Part shown: positions 17,630 to 56,523 of the stretch, piece by piece | Numbering within the stretch: the stretch's first letter is position 1 | Layout of the letters: each line of letters begins with the position of its first letter | Origin: an uncultured Sphingomonadaceae bacterium | Lineage (GTDB): Bacteria; Pseudomonadota; Alphaproteobacteria; Sphingomonadales; Sphingomonadaceae | Direction: 5' to 3' | Length of the DNA stretch: 64,000 nucleotides | NCBI GenBank assembly: GCA_938050045.1 | Contig: CALLJS010000004.1 | Span: 7,434 to 71,433, forward strand | Made by a program: the position numbers and the translations under genes | Notes under the pieces: generated by a model | What the model was told of the DNA's origin: nothing | The model's database searches: none | What the model saw: the letters and a program-made list of their open reading frames with translations, nothing else

Positions 17630-17639
17630 GTCGCAACTT

Positions 17640-20660: not shown

Positions 20661-20679
20661 TAATCTCTAATCGGATTAA

Positions 20680-38630: not shown

Positions 38631-39752
38631 CTAAAGAGTATCAATTTTTTGAATATGATCGGCAACGCCATTTTCGATGGAATAACGCTGCGCTGTATCG
38701 CGCATAGATTGTGATGGTTGGGATGGTTTTTGCAATGCATCATGCATCATTTGCGCGATCGAGCCTGGGTCTTCATTTTCCAGTAGTGCACATCCAGCTA
38801 TGGGGCTGAGAATTTCGCGCGCTGCCAAAAAACAATCGGTTGAGAGAATAGGGCAATTACTAGCTAAGGCCTCTAAAATGACGGCGGGCAATCCTTCGTA
38901 GCGCGATGTCATGACATACAGGTCAGCCGCTTTCAGATAATCGCTCACATGCGGAGCAAAGCCTGGCATAGTTACCCGATCTTCGATGCCCAATATATGA
39001 ACCAATTTTTCGCAATCCCCTTTTAACGCGCCATCGCCCAATATGATTAAATGGCAGTTTTCAACCGTTAATTTTGCAAAGGATTGGATTAGCAATTCCA
39101 TATTTTTCTGCGGCTCAAAACGGCCTATGCTTACTATGATTTTATGGCCCTTTGGAATATTGGCGATGTTGGGTTTATGCTTTGATATTGCGAGCATTTG
39201 ATCGGTCACATAGGGGTTTATAACGCTTTGAAATTTATGCGCCGCGTTTGGAAAAATTTGTTTTAATTCCTTATTTTCTGCTTCGCTGAGCGTTAGCGTC
39301 AAATCGGCTTTTTCAAATGCTATTTTATACCCCCATTTGCGCAGCATGGCATAGAGGCCGCTATCGTCTTTTCGGACAATCGGATTGGTGGTTTTGAAGA
39401 TGACTTTGGCGTTGCTCTGGGATAATTTTGCAGCAAGCAAGCTGATCCAATTCATATTATTGCATGTCGAGAGCAAGAGGTCGGTGGGATTAGCTTTGAT
39501 CCATCTCACCGCTGTAGGAAGCAGGCGAAATATGTCTTTGGTGCGCGAAGATTGGCTATCCCCCAGATGGATAAATTTGACATTTTCATCCATCTGTTGG
39601 CGGTAGATATTTTCTGCGCTGCCATCGCGGCAAAAAAGCAAGAGCGTCACATCATAACCCGCCTTGGCCAAACCGCTAGCCAATAATGTAGCAACGCGAT
39701 CAATACCGCCATTATCAAGCCGATAATGCAAGAGCGCGATATGTTTCATCAC
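38631..39752 (-). CDS. GT4-family glycosyltransferase
   Basis: C-terminal E-x7-E region (SRYEGLPAVILEALASNCPILSTD). Confidence 0.85.
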   Translation of the reverse strand: MMKHIALLHYRLDNGGIDRVATLLASGLAKAGYDVTLLLFCRDGSAENIYRQQMDENVKFIHLGDSQSSRTKDIFRLLPTAVRWIKANPTDLLLSTCNNMNWISLLAAKLSQSNAKVIFKTTNPIVRKDDSGLYAMLRKWGYKIAFEKADLTLTLSEAENKELKQIFPNAAHKFQSVINPYVTDQMLAISKHKPNIANIPKGHKIIVSIGRFEPQKNMELLIQSFAKLTVENCHLIILGDGALKGDCEKLVHILGIEDRVTMPGFAPHVSDYLKAADLYVMTSRYEGLPAVILEALASNCPILSTDCFLAAREILSPIAGCALLENEDPGSIAQMMHDALQKPSQPSQSMRDTAQRYSIENGVADHIQKIDTL

Positions 39753-39767
39753 ACTATCATGCGCTTA

Positions 39768-40391
39768 TTATGGGTAAATAGGAAGATGGATAGCATAAAC
39801 GGTGAGCAATATTATCAAACCAGCGATAAGGCCTGCGGCGACATCGGATGGCCAATGCACGGCAAGATAGAGGCGGCTATAGGCAATGGATATGATCAGG
39901 GTGACGCATAATATTTGCAAAATAATATTGGGGGTCATGCCCATAAATTGCGGCATTAAAAAACCAAGCCATCCCAAGATGGTCATAGCCATCATACTGT
40001 GCACGCTTGGAAAGCTAGAGGTAAACATTTGCGGGGCATCGCTGCGCACCGTTGGGCGTTTTCTTTTGGCAGTTCTCTTGAGGATATGGCCAAGCAAACG
40101 GGCTGATAGCGCGGTGATTAAATAGCTGTGTAGAAATAATCTATCGCCTATTAATTCAGAAACCCCGATCATCAACAAGGTCATAATCACTAAAAATGTA
40201 TCCCCGCCCAATGCTGTGGTGTCGATCATTAAACGGCGCATTTTTGGGATTTGTGTCTTGGTTGAACCATCTTCATCGTGCATGAATTGCAAGATACGCA
40301 GGTCGTAATCATCGCATTTACCGCGACTCACTAATTGCATGATGATGATATAGAGTATGACCAATATGGCTAGAGAAAATAGCATGGTCAT
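39768..40391 (-). CDS. PAP2-family membrane phosphatase
   Basis: PAP2 motifs KRKRP, PSVHS and SRLYLAVHWPSDV, with multiple TM segments. Confidence 0.85.
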   Translation of the reverse strand: MTMLFSLAILVILYIIIMQLVSRGKCDDYDLRILQFMHDEDGSTKTQIPKMRRLMIDTTALGGDTFLVIMTLLMIGVSELIGDRLFLHSYLITALSARLLGHILKRTAKRKRPTVRSDAPQMFTSSFPSVHSMMAMTILGWLGFLMPQFMGMTPNIILQILCVTLIISIAYSRLYLAVHWPSDVAAGLIAGLIILLTVYAIHLPIYP

Positions 40392-40401
40392 AATTTATAA
40401 T

Positions 40402-41703
40402 TTATGCTTTCTTACGGTGAAAATCCAGTGGGATAACATTCCCATAAGCAGGTCGATCATAATGTTCTTCCTCAACCTGCCTCATATCAGCTTTCATAAA
40501 TTCTGCAATAGCCAATGCTGCGCGGTGCGAAGAGGAGCGTTTGGGATCGAAGTCAAAACTGTCTAAAAATGTTTCATTTTGTATTTTGGCATATTGGGGA
40601 TCTAATGTTTCGGATCGCAATAAAGCCTGTTCCAAACTATCAAGTTTATCAATGACTTCACCAAAGTTCCAAAATTTATAATAATCATTATCTTGCCATT
40701 CAGCATCGTGCGAATTGATGAAAATGGCAGAGCGCGGACGCTCGATAAATTCGTAAATCTGGCTGCTAACATCCCCCATATAAATATCGGCGGCGCGGGT
40801 ATAGGACATATCCACCGAATTTATGCTGCCCGTATCAATATGGATGTGAGGAAGGCCCTTAAAGCGTTGCGGCAAGGTACGGCGTATCTTCACCTTGCGA
40901 TGTTCAACCGATGCCAAAAATGTGCGTTGGAACAGCATGACATGCGGTGCAAAGATTAAATTATAGCGGTCTTGATTGGCAAAATAATCGAGGATTTTCT
41001 CGCCATAATCGAACCATGACGATAATTTAGGATCGAAATGCGGATTGTATAATATAATGGGTTTATCATTGTCGAAGAATTTTTTGCGCGTTCCTAATGT
41101 GGGCGAATCAAATTTGGGATAACCGACAATTTTATTAGCATCGGGGCGAATGACATCTGCTTTTAGCATCTGGGTTTGTGTTTTTTTACCCGGTAGCAAG
41201 ACCAAATCAAAATGCCGATTGCTGGATGAGAATGAAATCTGACGATCGCCCGCGCCGTGCGGCATCAATATCAATTTCACCTGATCCACCTTAAGATGCG
41301 TGCGCAGCACCGTGCTGGTGGTCTCGGGAACCACCAAAGCATCATATTGCGCGAGTAATTTTCTGTTGCTGAGCAAATCGCTGATGCGGCGAATGGGTAT
41401 GATGCCGCCCAATATTTTTTCAACGATGTGCCAAAATTTATTTTGCTGCAAGGCATGGAAAGGAGGGCGTTTCAGGCTTGGATCCAAATGCGAGGACACC
41501 GCCTCTGTTTGCGCTTGGCTAGAGGTTAATATCTCAATCTGTGCGTTGGGGGCAACGCGCTGCAACCACGGGATAATAGGCGCGCTGTGGGCGATTTGGT
41601 GCAAACCATCATGATTGAACAAAAACCCAATGCGCAAAGCTTTATCAGTAGGCAAAGCATGCAAATTATTTGATTTTTCTTGTTCCATGACAATATTATC
41701 CAT
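40402..41703 (-). CDS. TagF-like CDP-glycerol/alditol-phosphate transferase family protein (tentative)
   Basis: By-eye resemblance to the TagF catalytic half: LMPHGAGD, YNPHFD, AADIYMGDVSSQIYEF. Not verified by an HMM search. Confidence 0.4.
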   Translation of the reverse strand: MDNIVMEQEKSNNLHALPTDKALRIGFLFNHDGLHQIAHSAPIIPWLQRVAPNAQIEILTSSQAQTEAVSSHLDPSLKRPPFHALQQNKFWHIVEKILGGIIPIRRISDLLSNRKLLAQYDALVVPETTSTVLRTHLKVDQVKLILMPHGAGDRQISFSSSNRHFDLVLLPGKKTQTQMLKADVIRPDANKIVGYPKFDSPTLGTRKKFFDNDKPIILYNPHFDPKLSSWFDYGEKILDYFANQDRYNLIFAPHVMLFQRTFLASVEHRKVKIRRTLPQRFKGLPHIHIDTGSINSVDMSYTRAADIYMGDVSSQIYEFIERPRSAIFINSHDAEWQDNDYYKFWNFGEVIDKLDSLEQALLRSETLDPQYAKIQNETFLDSFDFDPKRSSSHRAALAIAEFMKADMRQVEEEHYDRPAYGNVIPLDFHRKKA

Positions 41704-41797
41704 AAACGTACAAACTAGAGTATTGAGACCAATTAGGGCTGAAATGTGTCAAGAGTATGGTTGAAATATTGAATTATTAATTGGCGAACCAAATATT

Positions 41798-43282
41798 ATG
41801 AGCGAAAAAGATAATATCTCGAGAGAGGGTAGCAATAGCGCGCGCGATTTTATAGACCTACGCCGCGCCGTTATGGCTACTTTTTCCAGCTCTTTGGCAC
41901 GCTCTATTGCGCGTGTCTTGCTGATAATATTTGTTGTCGATTTATATGGTATTGGCAGCTTTGGCTATTTAGGCGAAGTCGCCGCAACCGTTGAGCTATT
42001 GGCGGCTCTGGCTTGCCTTGGTTTACCCAAAACAATTATGGCCTATTTTGACCGCGATAGAGAAAGCCCAGAAAATAGCGCAAATTTGGTGGCCAATGCC
42101 TTGGGCCTGACGATGCTAATGGGGGCGGGGTTGAGCCTATTAATGCTCATAATATGGCCTTTATTATTTCCAATTGATGCGCATATTCCGGCCTATGCTG
42201 CGCTTGCCATTTTCTTCATTTGCACCACCGAAATGATGCTGACCTTAACGCGCTCTCGCCGTATCATTAAATGGGAATCTATCGTTAAAGGATTAGTGAA
42301 ACCTTGGGGTTTTTTCATCCTTGCAATGGTGGGATATTTTCTCATCCAGCGTTATGATTATGAATCGATGATGGTCTTGATTGCGGCTTATTTTCTATCG
42401 CTGATAATATCGGCATTATTTGCTTTTGTTGGGATGGTTCAAATTTTAAAAGATGGCCAAATAGCGATTGGGAAAATCACCATAAAGGCGATGGCAGGGT
42501 TGGCCAAAGAGAGCGCCCCTATCGCTATGGTTGATGCAGCCAGTTTTGCGTTTCGACGGTTGGATATTATAATTTTGGGCGCGATGACAGGATCAAACGT
42601 CACTGGCGTTTATTATTTGGGGCAACAATTAGCCACAGTGGTTGAAAAAATGCGCCATTTATTCGAACCGATGGCAGCCCCTATATTGGCACAAACGCGC
42701 TCCACGCAAATTATCGCAGACTATCTGCAAAAAACCTGTCGATGGGTGTTCGCAGCTAGCCTTGGCAGCGCAATATGTTTTGCATTATATGCACAGCCTT
42801 TGATGGCATTATTCGATGTATATTTTGCCGCTGCTCTATTATTTATGAGCCTATTATTATGGGGCGAAATAGCCGATGGGTCGAGCGGATTGATCGAATT
42901 ACCAATTATTTTTAGAGACCCTCTAATAGCATCGCGCAATGTCATGATTGCTCTGTGTATAGAGGCGGTGAGCGTCGCAATAGGGGCTTTTCATTTCGGT
43001 ATATTGGGCGCTGCTTCGGGCTTTGCTGTGGGCATGATGGCGCTGTGTGGTTTGCGGCTTTATAGCGCGAAAAAACTCTATGATATGCGCATCATTGATA
43101 GCAGCTATTTCAAACCTATAGCAGCCGCTTTATTGAGCATAATGATTACAGTAATGGTGCGCGATTATCTGTTATCCTATCCCTATATTGGTCTAATATT
43201 TGGGGTGTTATTGTGCGGCGGGATATTCCTATTTGCGCTCAAACTTATGGGTATTTCTATGAAAATTTCTGACAATAGTTAA
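41798..43282 (+). CDS. Wzx-like MOP-superfamily polysaccharide flippase (copy 1)
   Basis: 494 aa, about 12-14 TM segments, located in a polysaccharide locus. Confidence 0.65.
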   Translation: MSEKDNISREGSNSARDFIDLRRAVMATFSSSLARSIARVLLIIFVVDLYGIGSFGYLGEVAATVELLAALACLGLPKTIMAYFDRDRESPENSANLVANALGLTMLMGAGLSLLMLIIWPLLFPIDAHIPAYAALAIFFICTTEMMLTLTRSRRIIKWESIVKGLVKPWGFFILAMVGYFLIQRYDYESMMVLIAAYFLSLIISALFAFVGMVQILKDGQIAIGKITIKAMAGLAKESAPIAMVDAASFAFRRLDIIILGAMTGSNVTGVYYLGQQLATVVEKMRHLFEPMAAPILAQTRSTQIIADYLQKTCRWVFAASLGSAICFALYAQPLMALFDVYFAAALLFMSLLLWGEIADGSSGLIELPIIFRDPLIASRNVMIALCIEAVSVAIGAFHFGILGAASGFAVGMMALCGLRLYSAKKLYDMRIIDSSYFKPIAAALLSIMITVMVRDYLLSYPYIGLIFGVLLCGGIFLFALKLMGISMKISDNS

Positions 43283-43375: not shown

Positions 43376-45679
43376 ATGGACCGAAGTTTCACTCTGAATG
43401 ATGCGACAGAAAGCACTGCTCAGGATATTGATCTTGATGCCGAAAATGCTATTGATAATGCGCAAGAAATTGCTTTGCTAAAACGCCGCTTGAAGCGCAG
43501 TGAAATGGCAAGGGAAGAAGCCGAATCCCTATTAGAGAGTAAAAGCAGACGTCTAAGCAAATTGGACGATCAATTACGGCAAAAAGAAGAAGAGTTGATC
43601 CGTAAAGTAGATCAGACGCAACAATATTTGGTAAATGCCCAACGCTTGGCTAATGTCGCCACCTTTCATATTGACGAAGATGTGCGCTTTGTGGGTTCGC
43701 TCAATTTCTCTAAAATTGTTGGCTCGAAATCTGAAGTCAATAATATCAGACAATTACGTGCCATGGTTCATAGGCGCGATATTGATGATATTGATGCGAT
43801 TATCAAAAATGCCATGTTGGGCGGGTTAATTGGTAATGCTCTAGAGCATGATGTGCGCGTGCTGGATGATTATGGACGTATCCGCTGGTTGCGATGGTCG
43901 GCGCAACAGATTGTTAATGCCGATAATGGCAAGGTTGATTGCTATGGAGCGGTTCGCGATATTACCGTTGAACGGCGCGCGGAACGCCATGAAAAAACGC
44001 TGTTGGCCCTGAGCGAGCGACGCTATAAACAGTTGCAAAAAATGTCCGCTCAATTATCCGATCGCGTTAAGGCTATGGAAATGATGAGCAATGCCTTGCG
44101 CGATGCGCGCGAAGTAGCGATTCGGGCTAATAAATCTAAGTCCCGTTTCTTGGCGATGATGAGCCATGATATTCGCACACCAATGAATGCTATTTTGGCA
44201 ACATTAGAATTATTGAGCCTATCTAAATTGGATGAAGTGCAGAAACGGCAATTAAAATTGGTGCAAAATAGCGGCGATCAATTGCTATTCCTGCTAGCTG
44301 ATATTATTGAATATGCCCGATCGGATGGTTGGTTGATTGAAATAGAAGCCCAACCCATTGCCGTCGATACTGTTATCAGCAATACAGCCGATACGTGGCG
44401 GCAATTGGCGCATAAAAAAGATTTGGACATTCAAACCGATATAAAAATGGATGGTGGTAATTATATCAAAACCGATCCAACACGGGTGCGTCAGTTGCTG
44501 GATAATTTGATAAGCAATGCCATTAAATATACCGATAATGGTATCATTACGATTAGCGCGACTATTAAGTCTGATAAGGATGATAATATATTAAGGGTTA
44601 GCGTTTCTGATACTGGTGATGGGATTAGCGAATCGGTGCAACAAATGTTGTTTGAAGATTTAGAGCGCGGCGAACATCAAGATGATTTGAATATCCAAGG
44701 CAGCGGATTAGGTTTGTCCATTTGTCGCCGCATTGTATATGCTATGAATGGCGATATTGGCGTAGAAAGTAAATTGAATCAGGGCAGCATGTTCTGGTTT
44801 GAAATTCCAGTTAAAACCACGAACGAAGAAGATTATCTCTATAATCAAGTCAGCGAGAAAACTATTCAAACATTGCTGGCAAATGGGCGACGCCCAAAAT
44901 TATTAATAGCCGAAGATGTGGCTGCTAACCGCATGGTTTTAACCTCTATGTTGGAAAAATTAGGGTGCGATTATGAAATTGCTATCGATGGCCGTCAAGC
45001 GGTTGAAATAACGCAATTGCATAAATTTGATGCCATTTTGATGGATGTCTCTATGCCGCGCATGAACGGGATGGAGGCCACTAAAGAAATACGCTCACAA
45101 GGTAAGGAAACCCCTATTATCGCCGTTACTGCCTTTGCTGCCGATGACGAAAAAGAAGCGATTATGGCCTCGGGTATGGATGGTTTAATTTCTAAACCTA
45201 TTAGCATCTCATCGCTATATCAATCGCTCGAAACCATCTTTTGTGGTGCGGATAATAATGATTTGCACCGATATTTGGGCAATGGTGAAAATGATAATCA
45301 TAACCGTGCCTCGGTCCCCGATTTTGATGTTATAGATTATATTGATACCGAAAAATTACACCATCAGCTAATATCTGTCCCGCCCGAAATGCGGGTTAAA
45401 TTACAAGAAGCAATTGTCGATGATTTGGGCAGTTGGTTCAGGCGTTTTCAAAGCGCTTGGCAAGCATCGGATGACCAGGAAATATCGGCAGCTAACCATG
45501 CCTTAAAAGGGATTTGTAATGGCTTTGGGGCGCATAAATTAATATCATCAATCGAGAGTTTGCGCGCCAAATCATCGATAGGGGATGCAAAAGCTTTGAC
45601 GCAAGTGATTGAAATTTATGACCATACGGCCTCTTCGTTTAAGAATGCAGCCGCGATAATAGACGAACGCAACGGCTAA
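43376..45679 (+). CDS. Soluble hybrid sensor histidine kinase: coiled-coil, PAS, HisKA, HATPase, REC, HPt
   Basis: H-box SRFLAMMSHDIRTPMNAI. N box DNLISNAIKYT, G boxes DTGDGI and GSGLGLSI. Receiver ILMDVSMPRMNG. C-terminal HPt motif NHALKGICNGFGA. No hydrophobic TM stretch. Confidence 0.9.
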   Translation: MDRSFTLNDATESTAQDIDLDAENAIDNAQEIALLKRRLKRSEMAREEAESLLESKSRRLSKLDDQLRQKEEELIRKVDQTQQYLVNAQRLANVATFHIDEDVRFVGSLNFSKIVGSKSEVNNIRQLRAMVHRRDIDDIDAIIKNAMLGGLIGNALEHDVRVLDDYGRIRWLRWSAQQIVNADNGKVDCYGAVRDITVERRAERHEKTLLALSERRYKQLQKMSAQLSDRVKAMEMMSNALRDAREVAIRANKSKSRFLAMMSHDIRTPMNAILATLELLSLSKLDEVQKRQLKLVQNSGDQLLFLLADIIEYARSDGWLIEIEAQPIAVDTVISNTADTWRQLAHKKDLDIQTDIKMDGGNYIKTDPTRVRQLLDNLISNAIKYTDNGIITISATIKSDKDDNILRVSVSDTGDGISESVQQMLFEDLERGEHQDDLNIQGSGLGLSICRRIVYAMNGDIGVESKLNQGSMFWFEIPVKTTNEEDYLYNQVSEKTIQTLLANGRRPKLLIAEDVAANRMVLTSMLEKLGCDYEIAIDGRQAVEITQLHKFDAILMDVSMPRMNGMEATKEIRSQGKETPIIAVTAFAADDEKEAIMASGMDGLISKPISISSLYQSLETIFCGADNNDLHRYLGNGENDNHNRASVPDFDVIDYIDTEKLHHQLISVPPEMRVKLQEAIVDDLGSWFRRFQSAWQASDDQEISAANHALKGICNGFGAHKLISSIESLRAKSSIGDAKALTQVIEIYDHTASSFKNAAAIIDERNG

Positions 45680-45826: not shown

Positions 45827-47299
45827 TTAATAGGCGCCTTTGCCCGTTATGACGGCTGGGATGGTGCGGAATATTAATTTAATATCCTTCCACAAAGATT
45901 TTTTCTCAAGATATTCGACATCCAAATCGACTTGCTGTTCAAAGGGAATATCAGCGCGACCAGAAACTTGCCATGTGCAGGTGATGCCAGGTTTTCCGTC
46001 CAACCTTTTGCGTTCTTTATCGCCATAAGCAATAACCTCATTGGGCAAGGCAGGTCTTGGCCCAACTATGGACATTTCGCCTGTTAGCACATTCACAATT
46101 TGCGGTAATTCATCAATAGAGGCACGGCGAATAAATTTGCCAACGCGCGTTACTCTTGGGTCTTTCTTCATTTTGAAACATACAGAATCGCGTTCATTCA
46201 TATCGCTTAATTCTGCTTTTCGGGCTTCTGCATCGCTATACATAGACCGAAATTTCCAAATCTTAAATGGCTTACCATCTTTGCCGATACGGGTTTGTTT
46301 GAATAAGGGTGAGCCTTTATCTTCTAAGGCTATGAGCAAGCAAAGCGCAGCAGCTATCGGCCCCAATAAAATTAATGCAACCAATGCGATCGTCATATCC
46401 AAACCGCGTTTCATGATATTTTTATATCGTTCTTTATAGCCTCTGCTCTCGAGCGCATAAATTACGGCGCGCGATAAAAACTCAATATTACCCGCAAGAT
46501 AGCGTCCCGCCAACCTTTTGGGTTCGCACATAAACCGCCAGACCCATTCCATATGCATTGTGCGCATTAATTTTGGGGCTCTTGGGATTCTACCAGAATA
46601 ATAATCAAACAAACCGCCGACGCCCATCACCACAGCCGCAGTTAATTTATCACGATTTTTATTGATCCAAACCTCTTGATGCGGAACACCCATGCCGACC
46701 AAAACTATAGAAGCTCCAGATGCATTGATGGCGGCGATAATTTCGTCTTCCTCTTTTTCTTTATCATAATATCCATGCTGCGTACCAGCGAACTTTAGCC
46801 CAGGATAGCTGTTGCGCATATTCTTACTAGCCGCCGCCGCGACGCCCTGTGCGCCCCCCAATAAAAATAAGGATTGACCAGCGATATTTGCTTTTTCGCA
46901 CAGAAGCGGAAATAAATCGGTACCATTTAGGTTGTTGATATAGTCTGTACCAGCCATTTTCCCAGCTAATTTTACGCCAGCACCATCGGGCAAAATCGCA
47001 TCAGCATTTTTGAGGGCTTCTTTATAGTCTGCATTTTTGCGAGAGATGTTGACGCAATGCGCGTTGATAAAATGCAATGTGTTCTTTTCGCCCAAAGCTG
47101 CAGCCTTTACGATTGCACTAGCTGTATCTTCTAAGGAAGAATTAACCAGCGGTATTTGAAAGAGAGGAATCGATTTTTTGCGATTGAGGTGCAAACCCAA
47201 ATTGGTGGTATCGGCATCGATATTAGAAATGGTGGACTGACCGTTCATTGCTTCTAATTTAAGCCGTGCAAATTGATTGTTGATGTCAATATAACTCAT
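45827..47299 (-). CDS. Fusion protein: WecG/TagA/CpsF (GT26) glycosyltransferase N-domain plus bacterial sugar transferase (polyprenyl-phosphate phosphoglycosyltransferase) C-domain
   Basis: The N-half has GT26 motifs (INAHCVN, LPDGAGV, GVPHQEVW, RAPKLMRTMHMEWVWR). The C-half has PGT motifs (PLFKQTRIG, KFRSM, DPRVTRVG, DELPQ, SIVGPRP). Confidence 0.85.
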   Translation of the reverse strand: MSYIDINNQFARLKLEAMNGQSTISNIDADTTNLGLHLNRKKSIPLFQIPLVNSSLEDTASAIVKAAALGEKNTLHFINAHCVNISRKNADYKEALKNADAILPDGAGVKLAGKMAGTDYINNLNGTDLFPLLCEKANIAGQSLFLLGGAQGVAAAASKNMRNSYPGLKFAGTQHGYYDKEKEEDEIIAAINASGASIVLVGMGVPHQEVWINKNRDKLTAAVVMGVGGLFDYYSGRIPRAPKLMRTMHMEWVWRFMCEPKRLAGRYLAGNIEFLSRAVIYALESRGYKERYKNIMKRGLDMTIALVALILLGPIAAALCLLIALEDKGSPLFKQTRIGKDGKPFKIWKFRSMYSDAEARKAELSDMNERDSVCFKMKKDPRVTRVGKFIRRASIDELPQIVNVLTGEMSIVGPRPALPNEVIAYGDKERKRLDGKPGITCTWQVSGRADIPFEQQVDLDVEYLEKKSLWKDIKLIFRTIPAVITGKGAY

Positions 47300-47331
47300 A
47301 TCGCGTCTCCATATAATTATGGTGATATAAG

Positions 47332-47347
47332 AGCATAATTTGTGCCA
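47332..47347 (-). promoter_or_regulatory. Sigma-54 type -24/-12 promoter motif for the GT26-PGT gene
   Basis: The minus strand reads TGGCACAAATTATGCT. GG and GC are at consensus spacing, about 35 nt upstream of the ATG at 47299, with a GGAGA RBS in between. Confidence 0.55.
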
Positions 47348-47453
47348 AATAGGGTAATGTTCTCAAATTCAAACCTTTATATGGTTAATGCTATATAAGG
47401 GATTACTGCATTGAAAAATAGAGATAAATTTATTCTCAATTTACGAATATGAT

Positions 47454-47496
47454 ATTGCAAAATGCAAATTATTCTGCCCCATATTTGCATATTGCT
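47454..47496. promoter_or_regulatory. Candidate enhancer (UAS): TTGCA-AAA-TGCAA palindrome plus TTGCA-TAT-TGCTA near-copy
   Basis: Perfect inverted repeat at 47454-47466. A one-mismatch copy lies at 47484-47496, 30 bp centre to centre. Both lie between the two divergent -24/-12 motifs. Confidence 0.45.
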
Positions 47497-47549
47497 AAAT
47501 CAAATAATATTAATTTATTTAAGACATTGTAATATTTGATTTTATTTTT

Positions 47550-47565
47550 TGGCACGGCTTTTGAA
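47550..47565 (+). promoter_or_regulatory. Weaker sigma-54-like -24/-12 motif for the wzx-GT2-GT2-GT4 operon
   Basis: TGGCACGGCTTTTGAA: the -24 half is perfect, but the -12 half has GA instead of the conserved GC. It lies 31 nt upstream of the ATG at 47596. Confidence 0.35.
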
Positions 47566-47595
47566 TAATAGTCTGACTAAAGATTAGGACAGAAT

Positions 47596-48882
47596 ATGAA
47601 AACAATGGCGATGAAATTGAAAAATAGCTTTGCAGAAGGCGGAAGCTTGCCAATCATCAATGCATTGATGGCTTATGGTTCAGCGCAATTGGCCATTCGT
47701 TTGGTGCGTTTGGTTGTGGTTATCATCATTGCGCGGCAATTGGTGCCAGAATTGGTCGGCGTTGCGGCTCTAACATTGACGATATTCGAACTTACCCGCG
47801 TCCTAGCCAATATAGGCGTTGGTCAAAAAATTATATCCTCGACCAATGCTGACTTTGAAAAAACATGCAATAGCGCGCATAGAATATTTTGGATTTGGTG
47901 CCCTGCGGTTGCCGCTGTGCAATTGCTCATGGCGCTGGGACTATATACTATATTTGATCAATATTTATCCGCAATGATGCTCGCTTCGCTCTGCTTGGTA
48001 TATTTCTTTATGCCGGGTGGTTTGGTGCAATGTTTTCGTCTTATGCGGGCAAAGAAACTATCAACCTGCGCCAAAATTGACGCTATTCAAACGATCAGCG
48101 ATCATATCTTAACCTGCGCGATGTTGATGGTATGGATTAGCCCTTGGTCGATCGTGCTGCCCAAATTGCTTACGGCACCCATTTGGCTCATCATGATGCG
48201 CCGCAGTGAAAGCTGGAAACCCGATGCATCGCTGGGCTTTATTGAATATCGCTCTATGGTGCGATTTGGATTGTCGGTATTAATCACCGATAGTTTAATC
48301 GCTATCCGCAGCCAAGCCGATAAATTGATAATCGGTGCGATGTTGGGCGTCAGCGCATTGGGCACTTATTATTTCGCCTTTAATGCGGGCATTGGCATAG
48401 TATCTGCTCTGATAACCGCGTTTGGCACAGTGATATATCCACATTTGTGCAACAATGAATTAGCCGCACAACAGCGCGATAAAATGAAATTAGCGATAAT
48501 GGCTGGCCTTGCCATTTTTGGAACTGCCGCCGCCGCGCAATATATTTTAGCTCCTTATTATGTGCCGATCATTTTCGGTGAAAAATGGAACCATGCGACG
48601 CAGCTAATCCAGATATTGGCATTGGCATCTATTCCCATGATTTGCCTAGCTTTGACCACCGGTTGGCTTCGCGCCAATGACCGCGCCAATATTGATGCAT
48701 GGGCAGGGTTATTGGCCAGTGTGTGCGCATTGGGCGCGATGGCAATAGGCGCTCAATATGGCTTAGTTTCGGCGGCGATGGCCTGGGTTGTGGGAACAAC
48801 GCTAATCGCCATTCCATTTGCATTGACAATTTTTATCCCATTATTTCGACTTAATATCCCCAAATTTCAACCAGGAGTATGA
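47596..48882 (+). CDS. Wzx-like polysaccharide flippase (copy 2)
   Basis: 428 aa, multi-TM, first gene of a glycosyltransferase operon. Confidence 0.65.
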   Translation: MKTMAMKLKNSFAEGGSLPIINALMAYGSAQLAIRLVRLVVVIIIARQLVPELVGVAALTLTIFELTRVLANIGVGQKIISSTNADFEKTCNSAHRIFWIWCPAVAAVQLLMALGLYTIFDQYLSAMMLASLCLVYFFMPGGLVQCFRLMRAKKLSTCAKIDAIQTISDHILTCAMLMVWISPWSIVLPKLLTAPIWLIMMRRSESWKPDASLGFIEYRSMVRFGLSVLITDSLIAIRSQADKLIIGAMLGVSALGTYYFAFNAGIGIVSALITAFGTVIYPHLCNNELAAQQRDKMKLAIMAGLAIFGTAAAAQYILAPYYVPIIFGEKWNHATQLIQILALASIPMICLALTTGWLRANDRANIDAWAGLLASVCALGAMAIGAQYGLVSAAMAWVVGTTLIAIPFALTIFIPLFRLNIPKFQPGV

Positions 48883-49808
48883 TTATGCCATCCCCTTATT
48901 TTTCCGTTATAATACCCGTCTATAATGCGCAAAACCATCTAAGAGAAACTGTGCAATCTGTAATCGATCAAAGCTTCACAGATTTTGAAATTATCATGAT
49001 TGATGATGGGTCAAGCGACGATAGCCTGGCTATCATGCTTGAACTTGCAAATCATGATGATCGATTGAAAGTCATATCGCAAAATAATCAAGGCGTTTCT
49101 GTAACCCGTAATATGGGGGCAGAGATTGCCAGAGGTAAGTTTTTGGCTTTCTTGGATGCTGATGATATTTGGTTGCCTGAAAAATTAGCAACGCATTACG
49201 CGCTGCATCATCGCAACACGTCTATCAGCGTAAGCTATGGGCAAATCGCATTTGTCGAAACCGATAATTTACTGAGCCTGCGCACATATTCCACCGTTAT
49301 GGAGCATCCGCTTACGATCAATGAAATCGTTGCTGAGAACCCAGTGTGCACCACATCAAATTTGGTGGTTTCGCGCATCTTATTTTTATCAACTGGTGGT
49401 TTTGATGAAACGATGACCCACGCCGAAGACCAAGAATGGCTGGCTAGAATAGTCCAGGATGGCCACATCATTTGCGGTATTGATAGATATTTGGTGGATT
49501 ATCGGCTTAGCGCCGATGGTTTATCGGTTAATTTACCCGCCATGTATGATGGTTGGAAGCTGATGGCACAACAATATAGCGCATCAGAAGATTTCAAATA
49601 TGCAGAAGCCATTTATTTGCGCTATTTATCGCGCCGCGCATTGCGCTCGGGTGCGCCTTCTAAAGTCGCGCTGCACTATGCGATAAAAGGTTTATCCTCC
49701 AATAGCCAAGGCTTTTTTAACGATAAAAAACGCGGCTGGCTGACATTGATTAGCGCAGGCGTTGGAATGATCCTGCCGCGCTCTACGCGCCTGCATATTT
49801 TTGCTTAA
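48879..49808 (+). CDS. GT2-family glycosyltransferase
   Basis: FSVIIPVYN...MIDDGSSDDS...FLDADD motifs. The start could be 48879 or 48885, and the AGGAG RBS favours 48885. Confidence 0.9.
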   Translation: MIMPSPYFSVIIPVYNAQNHLRETVQSVIDQSFTDFEIIMIDDGSSDDSLAIMLELANHDDRLKVISQNNQGVSVTRNMGAEIARGKFLAFLDADDIWLPEKLATHYALHHRNTSISVSYGQIAFVETDNLLSLRTYSTVMEHPLTINEIVAENPVCTTSNLVVSRILFLSTGGFDETMTHAEDQEWLARIVQDGHIICGIDRYLVDYRLSADGLSVNLPAMYDGWKLMAQQYSASEDFKYAEAIYLRYLSRRALRSGAPSKVALHYAIKGLSSNSQGFFNDKKRGWLTLISAGVGMILPRSTRLHIFA

Positions 49809-49841
49809 TGACTCTATCAAAATAATAGGAAAGATTTGAAA

Positions 49842-50834
49842 ATGAATGATGTTTTAATTTCGGTTGTAATGCCCGTCTATAATGTAGAAAAATATGTAGC
49901 AGAATCGATCCAATCGGTTTTGAATCAAAGCTATGAAAATTTTGAACTGATCATTGTGGATGATGGAGGTCAGGATAAAAGTATTGATATTTGTCACCAA
50001 TTTGACGACCCGCGAATTAGAATAATTTCGCAAAATAACAGAGGATTGGCTGGCGCGCGTAATAGTGGAATTAATGCCGCTAAAGGACGCTATATCGCAT
50101 TTTTAGATAGCGATGATTTGTGGCATAAAGATAAATTATCGCTGCATAAAATCCATTTGGATAGCAATGGACGCATCGGCGTAAGCTATAGTAGTTCGCG
50201 CTTCATTGACGAAAATAGCAAACCATTAAAACAAGCCCAAAAACCAAAATTATTAGATATTACGGCAGAGCATATTTTTAAGCGCAATCCGATTGGTAAT
50301 GGCTCAGCCCCCGTTATTCGGCGTGATGCACTAAATTTAATCGCCTTTAGGCATCCGAAAGAAAATGATAGAATATGTTATTTTGATGAGAGTTTTCGTC
50401 AATCCGAAGACATTGAACTATGGGTTCGCATTGCATTGACCAGCCCCTTTATTTTTGAAGGGATAGGCGGGCTGCTGACACGATACCGCATCATCAGCGG
50501 CGGATTATCGGCCAATATTGTTGCGCAATATCAAAGCTGGGATAGAATGCATGATAAGGTTAAAGAGCGTTTCCCCGAATTTATTAGCGATCATGGAGCA
50601 GAAGCGAGAGCGTATCAATTGCGCTATTTATCGCGCCGTGCCGTCCAATTAGGCGATGGCGCATTTGCGCTAATCTTGATAAAAGAAGCACTACAAATTA
50701 GCCGCACGCCGCTTTGCAAAGAGCCGATTAAAACGCTCTCAACCATGGCGGCGGCCTATATTTCGCGCTATCTGCCATCGTCATTCGTATCGTCTTTGAT
50801 GGCGGGTTGGACTGGCAGAAAGTCGATCATATGA
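49842..50834 (+). CDS. GT2-family glycosyltransferase (tandem paralogue)
   Basis: ISVVMPVYN...IVDDGGQDKS...FLDSDD. It shares the YLSRRA C-terminal region with the preceding gene. The ATG at 49842 has an AGGAAAG RBS. Confidence 0.9.
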   Translation: MNDVLISVVMPVYNVEKYVAESIQSVLNQSYENFELIIVDDGGQDKSIDICHQFDDPRIRIISQNNRGLAGARNSGINAAKGRYIAFLDSDDLWHKDKLSLHKIHLDSNGRIGVSYSSSRFIDENSKPLKQAQKPKLLDITAEHIFKRNPIGNGSAPVIRRDALNLIAFRHPKENDRICYFDESFRQSEDIELWVRIALTSPFIFEGIGGLLTRYRIISGGLSANIVAQYQSWDRMHDKVKERFPEFISDHGAEARAYQLRYLSRRAVQLGDGAFALILIKEALQISRTPLCKEPIKTLSTMAAAYISRYLPSSFVSSLMAGWTGRKSII

Positions 50835-51859
50835 CATATTTACCAAAAATTGTTCATTTGATTTCTGATTTATCGGTGGGCGGTGTGACCAATAATTTGA
50901 AATTATTTGATGAAGATATATTACAATCAAAATTTGCATCCACTATTGTGCCCATTACAACGCAATGGACGATAGCCCCGCAATATGATGCTGATATTAT
51001 CATCACCCATTTTTCACCAAGTTGGGCAAATTTGCCCTTTCTATTTTCGTTGCGCAAACGCAATATCGGGGCGAAGATTATTCATGTCGAGCATAGCTAT
51101 TCTCCTGAATGGGAAAAATATAGCGTCCCCGAGCCGCATCGTTTTCGGGCTATGCTTAAATTTAGCTATGCTCTTTTTGATAGGGTGGTTTGTGTGTCCA
51201 AAACACAATCAAAATGGATCGAGACTATCAAGGCGGCCCATCCATCTAAGCTACAGGTAATAAACCCATGGTCCAATATTGAACCATTACTCTCTATCGC
51301 TGCGCCTAAATTAGAGGATGATAGGCCGTTGGTCATTGGCAGCTTTGGCAGATTAGTAAAAGAAAAAGGATTTGAAGATTTAATCCACTCTTTTCTAAAA
51401 ATAGCTGACGGCGATGATATGACCCTCTTGATCGGTGGATATGGCCCCGCCGAGGCGCATCTGAAAAAAATAGCAGCGGATGACCCTCGGATAAAATTTT
51501 ATGGCATGGTGCATAATCCAGCCGAATTTATGATGCATTGCGATATTTTTGCTGTGCCGTCTTATTTTGAAACCTTTGGCTTAGTAGCCACCGAGGCTAA
51601 AGCCGCCGCCAGACCCGTGCTGGTCAGCCCTGTGGGGGCATTGGTCGAGCAAATCGGCAATTCAGGACTGGTGATCGACTTTACCAAACATAGTCAAGCC
51701 GGCCGCAGCTTAGCATCCTTAAAATCATGGCCATTACAAATGATGTCCGATGAAGGACGGCAGTCTTGCATCTCTATGACCGCGCGCAAAGCCGCGCAAT
51801 GGGAGCAATTTTTGAACGCGCAAATTATGGATGATTTTATCGCATCAAAGGCGGCATAA
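50831..51859 (+). CDS. GT4/GT1-family glycosyltransferase
   Basis: E-x7-E region (SYFETFGLVATEAKAAARPVLVS). The ATG at 50831 forms an ATGA overlap with the upstream stop. Confidence 0.85.
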   Translation: MTYLPKIVHLISDLSVGGVTNNLKLFDEDILQSKFASTIVPITTQWTIAPQYDADIIITHFSPSWANLPFLFSLRKRNIGAKIIHVEHSYSPEWEKYSVPEPHRFRAMLKFSYALFDRVVCVSKTQSKWIETIKAAHPSKLQVINPWSNIEPLLSIAAPKLEDDRPLVIGSFGRLVKEKGFEDLIHSFLKIADGDDMTLLIGGYGPAEAHLKKIAADDPRIKFYGMVHNPAEFMMHCDIFAVPSYFETFGLVATEAKAAARPVLVSPVGALVEQIGNSGLVIDFTKHSQAGRSLASLKSWPLQMMSDEGRQSCISMTARKAAQWEQFLNAQIMDDFIASKAA

Positions 51860-52340: not shown

Positions 52341-53621
52341 TTACGCATCACCCTTTTCATGGCTCTCGGGCATCAGCCCTTGACCGATGAGGATGAGGGC
52401 GGGCCAATAGAGATAGGCTAATATCTCTAAATTTTCACCAAAGCTGTATAATATGAGCAATGTCACCATCGATAAGGCGAGGCGCGATGCATGATATTTA
52501 TGCGCATTATAGAGCAAGAATAGAAATGAAACAGCCAGCGGTATGGCAAGAGCAAAAAAGCCGCTGAGCCCCTTTACAAATAATAATCCATACCAGCTAT
52601 GGTGGCTGCCTATGGGCATATATTCAACCAAATGTGGGCCGCGCTCTACGACGGCATGGCCAAACCAATAGGCTTCATTCTGCCACCGCTCAACCGCGAT
52701 ACGGCCCAGCGCTGCGCGCACGCGCGATGAATCAGCTCGCGCTCCTGAAAAGCTCTGAATCGCGCTATCAATCAAATTGATAATATCGACCGCAAACCAA
52801 CCCAAGAGCAATAATATCGGCATGGCCATAAACCATAGATAGGGTCTATTGATTTGTGATGCCGCAAAAGCAAAAGGCCAAATGATAATGAGCGCAACCA
52901 GTGCCAGGCGCGATTGTGATAAGAGCATGATTGCGAGCGATGCTATCAAACCGATGGCCTTCCATTTCGCGTCTTTTTCTTCGAGCGCGCATAAAAAATG
53001 TACCAAGGCTATCATCCCAGCAGCAGGCGACCATGGGGCAAAAAATTGCCACCGCGCTGTGCCGACACCAGGTTCGATTGTATATAAAGTTGCCGCAAAA
53101 TATTCGCTGCCAGAGCCGCCCAAAACTTTGAGGGGGGATACCCATAATGTTTGCGGCAGTCCGATATAAGGCGCGATCAAAAAGAGCGGTAAAATAAGCA
53201 GGCTATATTTGCCCAAACGGCATATGGCGCGGTGGATGACCTCGCTGCGTATCGGCAGCACAGCACCGGCCAGAATGAACATGGCTAATAAAGCCCATCC
53301 TTTTGCCCAACCGATAGAGGATTTAATCGTTGCGCCCGTGCCGAGGCGATAATCGACATGACCGATCCATAAAATGACCAAGAGCGCGAACATGCCCACA
53401 ATCCATAGCCATATGAATATGTTGGGGGCTTTGATACGTTTTTCTTCGGCTAAGCCTGGTGCTATAAAATAAGTCGATAGGACGATGGCGGTTAGCGCGA
53501 CCCCAAGAACGGGGCCGGCTATATATAATCCGCCGACCAACCATAAACCCCAAGTGCTTATTATGGCATAGACAATTATTTTTTCTTGAATATTTTGCGG
53601 ATGATCCGCTGACGTAACCAT
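52341..53621 (-). CDS. O-antigen ligase/polymerase (Wzy-like) family membrane protein
   Basis: About 10-12 TM segments and a Wzy_C-like LLSQSRLALVALIIIWP segment. Confidence 0.7.
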   Translation of the reverse strand: MVTSADHPQNIQEKIIVYAIISTWGLWLVGGLYIAGPVLGVALTAIVLSTYFIAPGLAEEKRIKAPNIFIWLWIVGMFALLVILWIGHVDYRLGTGATIKSSIGWAKGWALLAMFILAGAVLPIRSEVIHRAICRLGKYSLLILPLFLIAPYIGLPQTLWVSPLKVLGGSGSEYFAATLYTIEPGVGTARWQFFAPWSPAAGMIALVHFLCALEEKDAKWKAIGLIASLAIMLLSQSRLALVALIIIWPFAFAASQINRPYLWFMAMPILLLLGWFAVDIINLIDSAIQSFSGARADSSRVRAALGRIAVERWQNEAYWFGHAVVERGPHLVEYMPIGSHHSWYGLLFVKGLSGFFALAIPLAVSFLFLLYNAHKYHASRLALSMVTLLILYSFGENLEILAYLYWPALILIGQGLMPESHEKGDA

Positions 53622-55003
53622 AATAATGTCAATCCAATGATAAGAAAGAGTGTTGCTGCTATTGCGCCAGCGATTGCTAGCATTTTTGATGGGCTAGAAG
53701 GGCCGTTGGGTAGAGAAGGGGCTTCTAATAGCTGAACCAAGGGATAAGAAGCAAATGGATCTTGTTTATTGGTATCTAGGCGCGCCAAGGCCGATGAAAA
53801 CACCGCCTCGGCCACGCGGTGATCGCGAATAAGATCCGCGAGCTGCGATGCGCTGGTTACAAGCTCGCTGCGATTAGCCGATAATCTGCTAATGTCGCGG
53901 CGAATTTCGGATAGGCTAGCATTGATACCAGAGCGTTGTGATTCTGCCAAAGCCATGCCTTGCATCAAATTGGAACGACCAGCCGATACCGTAATATCAA
54001 CGCTATTTAGGATGGAATCATTGTCCAAGCCTGTAACGTCGCGTCCACGGCGCAGCAGGGCATCACGCAGGCTATCGCGTTCATCTTTGCTGACTATCAG
54101 AGCAGTATGATTATCGCCCAAAGTCGCCGATTTTTCCTCTGCGATGACAGAGGCTTTGGCATATTTATCGGCCAGCCCCTGAAATATTGGATCAGAGCGC
54201 AATTTGAGAGCTTTATTGGCATCGCCAATGCCCGTTCCTAAGATAGCGGCGAATTTTTGCGTTTCGGCCGCTTTGCTGCGTAATTTTGTGCGCTCATCGC
54301 GCTCTTTTTCCTGCAAAGCATCCAAATTGGCAATGCGGTTATTAAATTGATCTAATGAAACCAAGCCATTATTGGCTTGAAAAGCGAGCAATTTCTTTTG
54401 GGTAGATTGCACCTTTTTTTCCAATTCCACCAAATATTTGCTATCCACTATCTCGCGCTGCTTCGCTTCATCTTTGCGCAAAGATTGAAGCTGCAATAAA
54501 AATTGGTCTTTAAGAGCCGCTGCCCTTTTTTCGGCTTGCTCTGCGCTGCCGCCCGATATTTTCACAATAATCAAATTGGTTTGATCGATAAGTTCAATTT
54601 TTGGTGTGGGAAAATTATCCGCCTCTTCGCCTAAGCTGATGGCGGCACTGCGCAATGTGCGGTTGGTGCTGAGCAGCCTTTTGTAATTTTCCGTAGGACT
54701 CAAAGTCGCGCTAGCAAAAGCCGATGATGAGGAAGATTGGGCCTGCCCAATACTCTCAACATTGAGCGAACCGCCAGCACCACTTCCAGGTAATATCAAC
54801 GAAAATTCACTTTGATATTTAGCTGGTGTAAAGAGCAAATAGGCAGTGGTTAGCGACCAAATAGCAGCGAAAATCAATAATGAAGTGATAAGATAACGCC
54901 GCTCGCGCCAGTGCAAATTTCGCCATGATAATTTGCGCTGTTTGATAATATCTCTAATGAATATGACAGCATGGTCATAATCTAATTGTTCTATAATCGA
55001 CAT
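53576..55003 (-). CDS. Polysaccharide co-polymerase / chain-length determinant (Wzz/GumC-like), no kinase domain
   Basis: An N-terminal and a C-terminal TM segment flank a long coiled-coil periplasmic region. There are no Walker motifs. Confidence 0.75.
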   Translation of the reverse strand: MSIIEQLDYDHAVIFIRDIIKQRKLSWRNLHWRERRYLITSLLIFAAIWSLTTAYLLFTPAKYQSEFSLILPGSGAGGSLNVESIGQAQSSSSSAFASATLSPTENYKRLLSTNRTLRSAAISLGEEADNFPTPKIELIDQTNLIIVKISGGSAEQAEKRAAALKDQFLLQLQSLRKDEAKQREIVDSKYLVELEKKVQSTQKKLLAFQANNGLVSLDQFNNRIANLDALQEKERDERTKLRSKAAETQKFAAILGTGIGDANKALKLRSDPIFQGLADKYAKASVIAEEKSATLGDNHTALIVSKDERDSLRDALLRRGRDVTGLDNDSILNSVDITVSAGRSNLMQGMALAESQRSGINASLSEIRRDISRLSANRSELVTSASQLADLIRDHRVAEAVFSSALARLDTNKQDPFASYPLVQLLEAPSLPNGPSSPSKMLAIAGAIAATLFLIIGLTLLWLRQRIIRKIFKKK

Positions 55004-55005
55004 GA

Positions 55006-56187
55006 TTAATCCAAACTCTTGACTAAGATTAATGGAGAAATAGTCTCACCTACGACGCTCACCACATCGCGCAAATTCATCGCCAAACTGTCATAACATG
55101 CGATGCTGTCACCGGGCATAAGATAGGGATCACGGCTATCGCGGTCGGCATTACGAACTAATTTTTCGACAGCACGCGATATTACAATTGATTGACCCGT
55201 GATTGGATTGCGCGACATAAGCACAATCTGACGCGCTGCATTCATCGATGAACCACCCACGCAATTGGCTCCAACCATCGCTTGAGAGAGGCGCGTACCA
55301 TAAGGCAGCTTGCCGCTATCGGTGGTTATCCCCGATGAGGCGCTGCTAAGTGCTGGCCGCGATAGGTTCGACATATAAACGCGAACACCAGGTTGGGTGA
55401 TAATGGTTGGGCGAACCAAGGAAGCTTGTAAACATCCGATTGATGGGACAATGATCTTATCGCCCATTCGCACAGGTATGTCTTGCACAGCCTCTCCTGT
55501 AATGGCCCCGCTCATATTGACTTGTGTCCATTGATTACCGCGTAATAGATATATGGTTTTGATTTCGGCATCGGGTCGAACACCGCCTGCGGCGCGCAAA
55601 GTGGTGGACATATTCTGGCTAGCATTGGCATCGCCATATTGAATATTATTGAAATTCACATCACGAGTTTCGGCATTTTTATCCCCAATTCTAATTAAAC
55701 CTGGGTCAAATACTGCGCCATTAACCGCAACATTCACGCCGCTTAATTCTGCAATAGTAAGCCTAACCCCAGCATGGGCTCTGCGAATTAAACCTTGGTC
55801 ATATAATGTTTTAGCAACGATATTTTGTGCGCTAATTGTCGATTGTCCTGCAATTTTTATGCGATATTTGCCCAATAATGTTATTTCGCCATTATCGCCT
55901 ATTGTATATGTACCCGTTAATTGGTCTTTATCGCCCGCGACATTTAATTTAATGCTATCGCCGCTATTTAACGCATCCATACTCTCTATGAATTGTTCGG
56001 GCTTTACAAAAGTAAGGCCATCGATTGCCTGCGGGATGGGTGCGCTATGACAAGAGGTTTGATGTATATCGCCCGACATATATTGTGCGGCATAATAATT
56101 TTCAATATCATTATCTGGCGTGCGCATCGTGGCGCACCCCGATAATAGGGACAGCAATGTTAATGAGGTGATAAGTTTTTTCGTCAT
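55006..56187 (-). CDS. wza: Outer-membrane polysaccharide export lipoprotein (Wza-like)
   Basis: Lipobox LLSGC. Poly_export/SLBB-like repeats (GDSIKLNV, GDKIIVP, GDSIACY). Confidence 0.8.
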   Translation of the reverse strand: MTKKLITSLTLLSLLSGCATMRTPDNDIENYYAAQYMSGDIHQTSCHSAPIPQAIDGLTFVKPEQFIESMDALNSGDSIKLNVAGDKDQLTGTYTIGDNGEITLLGKYRIKIAGQSTISAQNIVAKTLYDQGLIRRAHAGVRLTIAELSGVNVAVNGAVFDPGLIRIGDKNAETRDVNFNNIQYGDANASQNMSTTLRAAGGVRPDAEIKTIYLLRGNQWTQVNMSGAITGEAVQDIPVRMGDKIIVPSIGCLQASLVRPTIITQPGVRVYMSNLSRPALSSASSGITTDSGKLPYGTRLSQAMVGANCVGGSSMNAARQIVLMSRNPITGQSIVISRAVEKLVRNADRDSRDPYLMPGDSIACYDSLAMNLRDVVSVVGETISPLILVKSLD

Positions 56188-56275
56188 TTATTATTCCTCT
56201 GGGTGAACCCTATACAAATAGTATAATGGTCTGAGATGCGGTAATTATGCTATTTGCATTTTCGGAATTTTAATT

Positions 56276-56291
56276 TGCAACGGTCGTGCCA
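56276..56291 (-). promoter_or_regulatory. Sigma-54 -24/-12 promoter for the wza-wzz-wzy operon
   Basis: The minus strand reads TGGCACGACCGTTGCA, an exact match to TGGCACG-N4-TTGCW, about 90 nt upstream of the wza ATG (56187). Confidence 0.7.
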
Positions 56292-56353
56292 ATTGCATTT
56301 TTGGTTCAAAATGGTCGAAAATAAGAGGCTTTATCAAATTTATTTTGAAATCT

Positions 56354-56410
56354 TTGCAATTTGCAAACCTTTTTCTTGCATATTGCAATCAAGATTATTG
56401 CATATTGCAA
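56354..56410. promoter_or_regulatory. Candidate enhancer (UAS): three TTGCA-W3-TGCAA palindromes phased 22 bp apart
   Basis: TTGCAATTTGCAA at 56354-56366, TTGCATATTGCAA at 56376-56388, TTGCATATTGCAA at 56398-56410. All three lie between two divergent -24/-12 motifs. Confidence 0.55.
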
Positions 56411-56463
56411 TGCGCTAAGCCCAGAAACTCTATGTTTGACACTATAGTATAGCATTTTGATAT

Positions 56464-56479: not shown

Positions 56480-56523
56480 TTACCACCGCGAATAAGAATT
56501 AAATTTTTAAGTAAGGAAATGGT

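Follow-up and report, generated by a model that had tools for sequence, protein, structure and literature searches.

A 64,000-nucleotide stretch of an uncultured Sphingomonadaceae genome (contig CALLJS010000004.1, hereafter the window) carries a Wzx/Wzy-pathway polysaccharide cluster, of which four operons and ten genes constitute, in our reading, one predicted sigma-54 regulon. We give this reading a probability of roughly 0.8. The operons diverge in two pairs: at 47.3-47.6 kb the gene of the initiating transferase (PGT) is parted from wzx-GT2-GT2-GT4, and at 56.2-56.5 kb an export operon (wza-like, chain-length and wzy genes) is parted from hnoX and the gene of a LuxO-like activator. The initial annotation of the window had suggested that initiation, flipping, glycosyl transfer and export answer to a single activator. 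This suggestion now finds support in sequence: the architecture shared by the two junctions, its conservation at both, and the presence in one of the operons of an activator with a LuxO-type recognition helix make a single-activator regulon the best reading.

The first spacer (47300-47595) is 296 bp long, as had been annotated, has a G+C content of 27% and lies between PGT on the minus strand and wzx on the plus strand. The two operons and the elements between them are as follows.

45827-47299, minus strand: initiating transferase gene (PGT), a fusion of WecG/TagA (GT26) with a Bac_transf phosphoglycosyl transferase; single-gene operon
47347-47332, minus strand: predicted sigma-54-type promoter of the PGT gene, TGGCACAAATTATGCT, with GG at -24 and GC at -12
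47367-47379, plus strand: integration host factor (IHF)-like site ATTCAAACCTTTA, which differs from WATCAANNNNTTR at one position and lies between promoter and enhancer, some 52 bp upstream of the predicted PGT start
47455-47467: putative enhancer site 1, the perfect LuxO-type palindrome TTGCAAAATGCAA, at about -140 for PGT and -115 for wzx, counted from the predicted starts
47485-47497: putative enhancer site 2, the one-mismatch TTGCATATTGCTA, 30 bp from site 1, at about -85 from the wzx start and -170 from the PGT start
47550-47565, plus strand: predicted sigma-54-type promoter of the wzx operon, TGGCACGGCTTTTGAA, in which GA replaces GC at -12; it faces wzx at 47596
47596-51859, plus strand: operon of wzx (flippase), GT2, GT2 and GT4, assigned by Pfam

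Both promoter-like sites stand where the initial annotation had placed them and read as it had given them. On the PGT side, TGGCACAAATTATGCT has GG and GC 10 nt apart in a context resembling TGGCAC-N5-TTGCW, as expected of a sigma-54 promoter; on the wzx side only the GA at -12 departs from consensus, all remaining consensus positions of TGGCACGGCTTTTGAA being matched. With the C of the GC placed at -12, transcription of the PGT gene would start at about 47321, leaving a leader of 22 nt with a GGAGA ribosome-binding site, and that of wzx at about 47576, leaving a leader of 20 nt with AGGA. The two palindromes had likewise been recognized with the correct number of mismatches, although their coordinates had been set one base too far to the left. 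They fall at predicted distances of -85 to -170; taking approximately 80-150 bp upstream of the start as the range for a LuxO-type enhancer, we counted these distances as agreeing.

The second divergent spacer extends from 56188 to 56523, and its surroundings comprise the following.

52341-56187, minus strand: export operon, encoding a Wza-like exporter (55006-56187), a chain-length-determinant-like protein (53576-55003) and a Wzy-like polymerase (52341-53621)
56291-56276, minus strand: predicted sigma-54 promoter of the export operon, TGGCACGACCGTTGCA, with zero mismatches to the consensus
56354-56410: three perfect TTGCA-W3-TGCAA sites (at 56354, 56376 and 56398), 22 bp apart, common to both divergent promoters
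56464-56479, plus strand: predicted sigma-54 promoter of the hnoX-activator operon, TGGCATGAGCATTGCT
56524-57066, plus strand: hnoX, the gene of an H-NOX (haem NO/O2-binding) protein, by Pfam HNOB (PF07700, E = 8e-30)
57059-58567, plus strand: gene of the LuxO-like sigma-54 activator, with receiver (REC), AAA+ and Fis-type helix-turn-helix (HTH) domains, by Pfam

As had been proposed, the two junctions share one architecture, namely an outward-facing GG-N10-G(C/A) pair that flanks central TTGCA-W3-TGCAA sites. Since TGGCATGAGCATTGCT precedes the operon of the activator itself, positive autoregulation is predicted. The matches of the export proteins to Pfam and NCBIfam are weak yet consistent, and their synteny is conserved. 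Further conserved blocks with TTGCA half-sites (TTTGCATTTTCGGAATTTTAAT and AATTGCATTTTTGGTTCAAAATGG) flank the export promoter at 56244-56275 and 56292-56315; they are retained in close orthologs only, and could be extra activator half-sites or a leader element.

The palindrome is known from the Vibrionaceae, in which the LuxO enhancer at qrr promoters reads TTGCAW3TGCAA (PMC10162802; PMC11443567). The site at 47455-47467 and the three sites at 56.35-56.41 kb match this 13-bp sequence with an A/T centre, and the site at 47485-47497 differs from it by one mismatch. In Vibrio fluvialis, qrr1 possesses two LuxO sites 30 bp apart, at -119 and -89 (PMC11443567); the two sites of the first spacer show the same 30-bp interval and lie at about -115 and -85 relative to the predicted wzx start. 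The initial annotation had held, by eye, that all perfect TTGCA-N3-TGCAA matches lie within the two spacers, and a count bears this out: there are four in the 64-kb window (47455, 56354, 56376 and 56398), all A/T-centred and all in the 47.4-kb or the 56.3-kb spacer, against 0.38 expected, and none of 100 shuffles reached four. In dinucleotide shuffles of the AT-rich 296-bp spacer, one perfect palindrome arose with P = 0.0009 and sigma-54-like sites on both strands with P = 5e-5, and all three features together occurred in 0 of 20,000 shuffles. Window-wide, the loose sigma-54 pattern is not enriched (23 matches versus 21 expected), and the weight of these sites therefore rests on their placement and conservation.

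Metagenome contigs were scanned for two TTGCAW3TGCAA sites 22 bp apart, which yielded 86 stretches, few of them linked to a sigma-54 site. One of these few (L049, 1818-2080) acts as a positive control: a tandem LuxO-type site is followed, at the distance expected of a sigma-54 site, by TGGCACGTAATCTGCA and then by a Qrr RNA (Rfam RF00378, 104 bits), whose first base falls no more than one base away from where the -12 rule puts it. Another (L048) is a further hnoX-activator locus. At L098 (9860-11400), two TTGCAW3TGCAA sites in tandem and a site reading TGGCACCTAAATTGCT come directly after an activator gene of 33% identity and unrelated appearance, and this may be another system with the same type of enhancer.

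A scan of the window for sigma-70 promoters and terminators found sigma-70-like matches unenriched, with none facing wzx on the plus strand within the spacer, and an Rfam scan of the window returned no Qrr and no other RNA family. Two sigma-70 candidates were rejected: the orthologs do not share the TTGACA-17-GATATT match that lies upstream of hnoX, and the conserved TTGAAT of the wzx site, taken as a -35 box, lacks a credible -10 box and would make transcription begin at the ATG itself.

The activator encoded at 57059-58567 possesses the domains REC, Sigma54_activat (PF00158, E = 4e-70) and HTH_8, and its sequence holds a Walker A motif, a GSFTGA loop of the GAFTGA type and the receiver Asp (in LLDLQLPD). 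Its best NCBIfam family is LuxO, with 535 bits versus 375 for NtrC, and the closest solved structure is also that of LuxO (PDB 5EP0, 398 bits). Full-length LuxO sequences were obtained by searching with the LuxO sequence of PDB 5EP0, and in the resulting alignment the activator is 45-47% identical to genuine Vibrio and Photobacterium LuxO; a homolog search with the 57-residue DNA-binding domain alone returned two short proteins and no LuxO. In the region of the recognition helix the activator reads LDVSPSTLYRK and LuxO reads L(D/E)VSPSTIYRK, compared to LNIDRASLYRK in an unrelated activator of the same alignment. Six residues of this helix are critical for LuxO of Vibrio cholerae (PMC11407668); at these positions the activator has S, L, Y, R, K and R, and LuxO has S, I, Y, R, K and L. 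Judged by sequence, this likeness of the helices is the most direct available link between the activator and the palindromes. LuxO-specific autoinhibition involves the linker Gly141 and Gly329 (PMC4878744), of which the former is conserved in the activator (FAGFVG) and the latter is replaced by Thr. The named homologs closest to the activator are all from Sphingomonadales, the order to which the organism of the window, a marine and uncultured relative of Sphingorhabdus/Parasphingorhabdus, also belongs.

Orthologous loci were found through the activator, whose identity was measured in four of them, or through the PGT protein in the remaining three.

L001 (same contig as L005), uncultured Sphingorhabdus: activator 89% identical to the protein of the window
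L002, marine metagenome: activator 79% identical
L004, uncultured Sphingorhabdus: PGT 89% identical
L006, Parasphingorhabdus: PGT 60% identical
L007, Parasphingorhabdus: PGT 62% identical
L018, Sphingomonas lacunae: activator 61% identical; export/regulator half of the cluster only
L019, Citromicrobium bathyomarinum: activator 55% identical; 64% G+C

These loci range in G+C from 0.40 to 0.64 and retain the gene order, the promoter pairs and T(T/C)GCA-W3-TGC(A/G)A sites. The 47-kb type of junction is kept in six (L001, L002, L004, L006, L007 and L019) and the 56-kb type in the same six and in L018, with inter-promoter distances of 187-203 bp and 151-174 bp, respectively. In the PGT/wzx spacers the minus-strand GG-N10-GC persists in all six with a variable spacer sequence. 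The core of enhancer site 1, TGCAAAATGC, is identical in L001, L002, L004, L006 and L007 and reads TTGCAGAATGCGA in L019; site 2 is poorly conserved, with degraded versions in L001 and L004 and a retained one, TAGCATAATGCAA, in L002. The IHF-like site occupies the same spacer position (68-69) in six of seven orthologs and is a perfect match in L006. The order wzx-GT2-GT2-GT4 is identical in L001, L002, L006, L007 and L019. At the export/regulator junction, the export promoter is conserved in all seven loci, and the orthologs, including the GC-rich L018 and L019, have both promoters and two or three sites at approximately 22-bp phasing.

Several observations weigh against a single regulon under a LuxO-like activator. 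The -12 element of the wzx promoter is GA and not GC, and the 47-kb junction is left with only one firmly conserved palindrome plus degenerate half-sites, compared to three firm sites at 56.3 kb. The activator fails the equivalog cut-off for LuxO (NF041946), with 535 against 800 bits. Shared family does not guarantee shared specificity, as SypG, the LuxO paralog of the Vibrio fischeri syp locus, is assigned a different enhancer, TTCTCANNNTGMDWN (PMC10162802). A Pfam scan of the open reading frames of the window revealed no rpoN. Finally, most stretches from the metagenome scan belong to a long palindrome of GC-rich soil contigs, with neither a sigma-54 site nor related genes.

The GA at -12 gives rise to the alternative that survives best, although we regard it as distinctly unlikely: only the PGT-side promoter would work, the wzx-side site being non-functional or vestigial and the wzx operon being read from another promoter. 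Amongst sigma-54 promoters GA at -12 is a rare departure, and a paper on the -12 element contained nothing on GA variants. Against this alternative, TGGCAYRGYWWTTGAA is present on the wzx side in 7/7 orthologous spacers, including that of Citromicrobium at 64% G+C, amid diverging flanks. The export promoter of Citromicrobium (L019, 9235-9250) also has TTGAA in place of TTGCW as its -12 element, and together these two facts indicate that the GA is maintained and not a product of decay; the initial annotation had observed the GA and had taken the promoter to be weaker on its account. In addition, the spacer has no sigma-70-like match on the plus strand, and the predicted start leaves wzx with a short leader, a good ribosome-binding site and an ATG.

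Less probable again is that the palindromes are operators of a protein other than the adjacent LuxO-like activator, for instance a repressor or a further regulator. Here the soil contigs carry the argument in its favour. Dozens of them (L022, L023, L030, L041-L045, L061-L074 and others) share one palindrome, TTGCAAAATGCAAATT-n5-AATTTGCATTTTGCAA, with no sigma-54-like site within 250 bp and no homolog of the window genes. The soil palindrome is a different element, and its abundance in unrelated contigs demonstrates that the tandem 13-mer can serve other proteins or elements; the 13-mer alone is not diagnostic, and it is the context that carries the argument. This context disfavours another protein: the palindromes occupy the middle of the interval between the divergent sigma-54 promoters, where -85 to -140 are distances proper to an enhancer, their presence goes with that of the hnoX-activator pair in each of the orthologous loci, and the recognition helix of the activator matches that of LuxO, the owner of this site. 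That the motifs are chance products of an AT-rich spacer, as its base composition and the unenriched loose sigma-54 pattern might suggest, has next to no credibility in view of the local shuffles (P <= 1e-3 per element) and of the conservation of the elements in GC-rich orthologs.

The single-activator regulon would operate as follows. Sigma-54 RNA polymerase would reside in closed complexes on the two outward-facing promoters of PGT and of wzx-GT2-GT2-GT4, and dimers of the LuxO-like activator would bind the central TTGCA-W3-TGCAA site or sites between them. Phosphorylation of the receiver Asp in LLDLQLPD would lead the activator to form an ATPase ring, with looping to either promoter and promoter opening as the consequence; on the PGT side, a bend at the IHF-like site may help. 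The same activator, acting on the three stronger sites at 56.35-56.41 kb, would turn on the operon for export and polymerisation as well as the one that its own gene shares with hnoX, so that all ten Wzx/Wzy-pathway genes would be switched on together and with positive feedback. What the analysis shows is the sequences with their positions and conservation, the family of the activator and the agreement of its recognition helix with that of LuxO; from these we infer binding, sigma-54 dependence, start sites, the role of IHF, which kinase is the partner and in which direction NO (nitric oxide) acts. Given its one firm site and non-canonical -12 element, the 47-kb junction may need a larger amount of active activator than the three-site export/regulator junction.

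The signal that feeds this circuit probably involves the H-NOX protein, which has the YxSxR motif of its family as YQSHR and a candidate proximal His (SHIHSEV), and whose gene overlaps that of the activator by 8 nt; an overlap of 1 to 8 nt recurs in every orthologous locus examined. A candidate phosphodonor for the activator is encoded nearby:

43376-45679, plus strand: soluble hybrid histidine kinase with PAS, HisKA, HATPase and REC domains, by Pfam, and a C-terminal motif, HALKGICNGFGA, resembling a histidine phosphotransfer (Hpt) domain

L006 and L007 likewise have the gene of this kinase next to that of PGT. In the probable order of events, H-NOX would modulate the kinase-Hpt protein, which would phosphorylate the activator. 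Pathways for comparison are H-NOX/HqsK/LuxU/LuxO of Vibrio harveyi (PMC6769237) and HnoX/HahK/SypG of V. fischeri (PMC12369376). If the Vibrio precedent applies, NO would lower the expression of the polysaccharide genes, which is a guess by analogy.

A shorter route, which we consider unlikely, would have H-NOX act directly on the LuxO-like activator without a kinase, as a sensor/anti-activator pair in the style of NifL/NifA. The idea derives from the translational coupling of the two genes, which all examined orthologous loci display, and from the operon carrying no kinase gene. Were it true, it would represent a new output class of H-NOX, in which NO or O2 directly gates sigma-54-dependent polysaccharide synthesis in Sphingomonadales. 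Its milder corollary would be a DNA-binding specificity of LuxO common to Alpha- and Gammaproteobacteria, exerted here on structural genes without Qrr RNAs.

Amongst known systems, the proposed regulon resembles that of Vibrio LuxO and qrr, with which it shares the 13-bp enhancer, the distances and a site spacing of 22 or 30 bp. The degree of identity between the activators, the near-identical recognition helix and the conserved linker Gly add to this likeness, as does the input by H-NOX and a cytosolic hybrid kinase, which is known in V. harveyi (PMC6769237). Unlike in Vibrio, the targets are protein-coding biosynthesis operons and not small RNAs, and the Hpt function appears to be fused to the kinase. 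No luxU adjoins the activator gene, which is preceded by hnoX and followed by a GH42 gene of convergent orientation, and no qrr was found in the window. With a score below the ortholog cut-off and neither qrr nor luxU nearby, and with Thr in place of Gly329, the activator is best described as a LuxO-like relative and not as LuxO itself.

In its manner of working the proposed regulon resembles the syp/SypG system, although its site is that of LuxO. The syp locus of V. fischeri is similar in that a LuxO-related sigma-54 activator, SypG, is encoded with a Wzx/Wzy-type polysaccharide cluster, and in that several sigma-54 promoters each have a conserved upstream enhancer (PMC10162802), here four promoters in two divergent pairs. 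An input by H-NOX (HnoX) and hybrid kinase (HahK) is also part of the V. fischeri pathway (PMC12369376). The enhancer of the present cluster, however, reads TTGCAW3TGCAA and does not qualify as that of syp; further differences are the sharing of sites by two divergent promoter pairs, the co-transcription of hnoX with the activator gene and the alphaproteobacterial host. Pfam found no STAS partner-switch genes of the SypA/SypE type in the cluster, and together with the different enhancer this indicates that it is not a syp locus.

The geometry of the junctions has a counterpart in zraP/zraSR of Escherichia coli, where the activator binds centrally between two -24/-12 promoters that face outward, and where one of the two operons contains the gene of the activator. 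The E. coli system differs from the present cluster in activator family, signal and regulated function. More generally, the control of exopolysaccharide clusters by sigma-54 and a linked activator is a known theme (PMC3162934). Literature searches returned no description of this system in Sphingomonadales; the 'promonan' cluster of Sphingomonas (PMC11340318) is a different one, and sigma-54, NtrC, enhancer and H-NOX are absent from that paper. A Sphingopyxis genome paper yielded nothing on rpoN.

Regarding the enzymes of the cluster, the PGT protein matches PF03808 at residues 99-267 and PF02397 at residues 297-484, and scores 281 bits with NCBIfam EPS_sugtrans, which lies under the cut-off of that family. 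The GT26 fusion to PGT is present in all orthologs. With WecG/TagA fused to the initiating transferase, the first two steps of repeat-unit synthesis would reside in one polypeptide. A GH42 beta-galactosidase gene (window 58575-60539), which has the same position in L001, L002 and L003, converges on the activator gene, and the enzyme could be related to turnover of the polysaccharide. By the kinase gene lies a second glycan module (window 38631-43282) that comprises a GT4, a PAP2 phosphatase, a 433-residue protein that matches nothing in Pfam and a second protein resembling a flippase; its 95-bp divergent spacer has no LuxO-type site and no sigma-54 site. A LytS-type histidine kinase (His_kinase plus HATPase_c) and LytTR response regulator pair at window 29019-30955 is unrelated to the cluster. 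In L019, genes for an integrase, a Toprim/primase-like protein, a large helicase, ParB and ArdC begin within 370 bp after the activator gene (11787-21419), which implies that the Citromicrobium cluster borders an integrative mobile element.

Altogether, the regulon is well supported and of a fairly ordinary kind, and it introduces no new regulatory principle; modestly unusual are the co-transcription of hnoX with the activator gene and the conserved GA at -12. If confirmed, it would provide the full and testable wiring, with sensor, kinase, activator and finally four promoters, of an uncharacterised polysaccharide cluster that marine and freshwater Sphingomonadales conserve. The wzx promoter, being a naturally occurring sigma-54 promoter in which GA at -12 is conserved, would then lend itself to work on how this element tunes the dependence on an activator. 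Confirmation would also mean that the recognition helix of LuxO and its 13-bp site reach beyond the quorum sensing of Vibrionaceae, and that they can act directly on biosynthetic operons.

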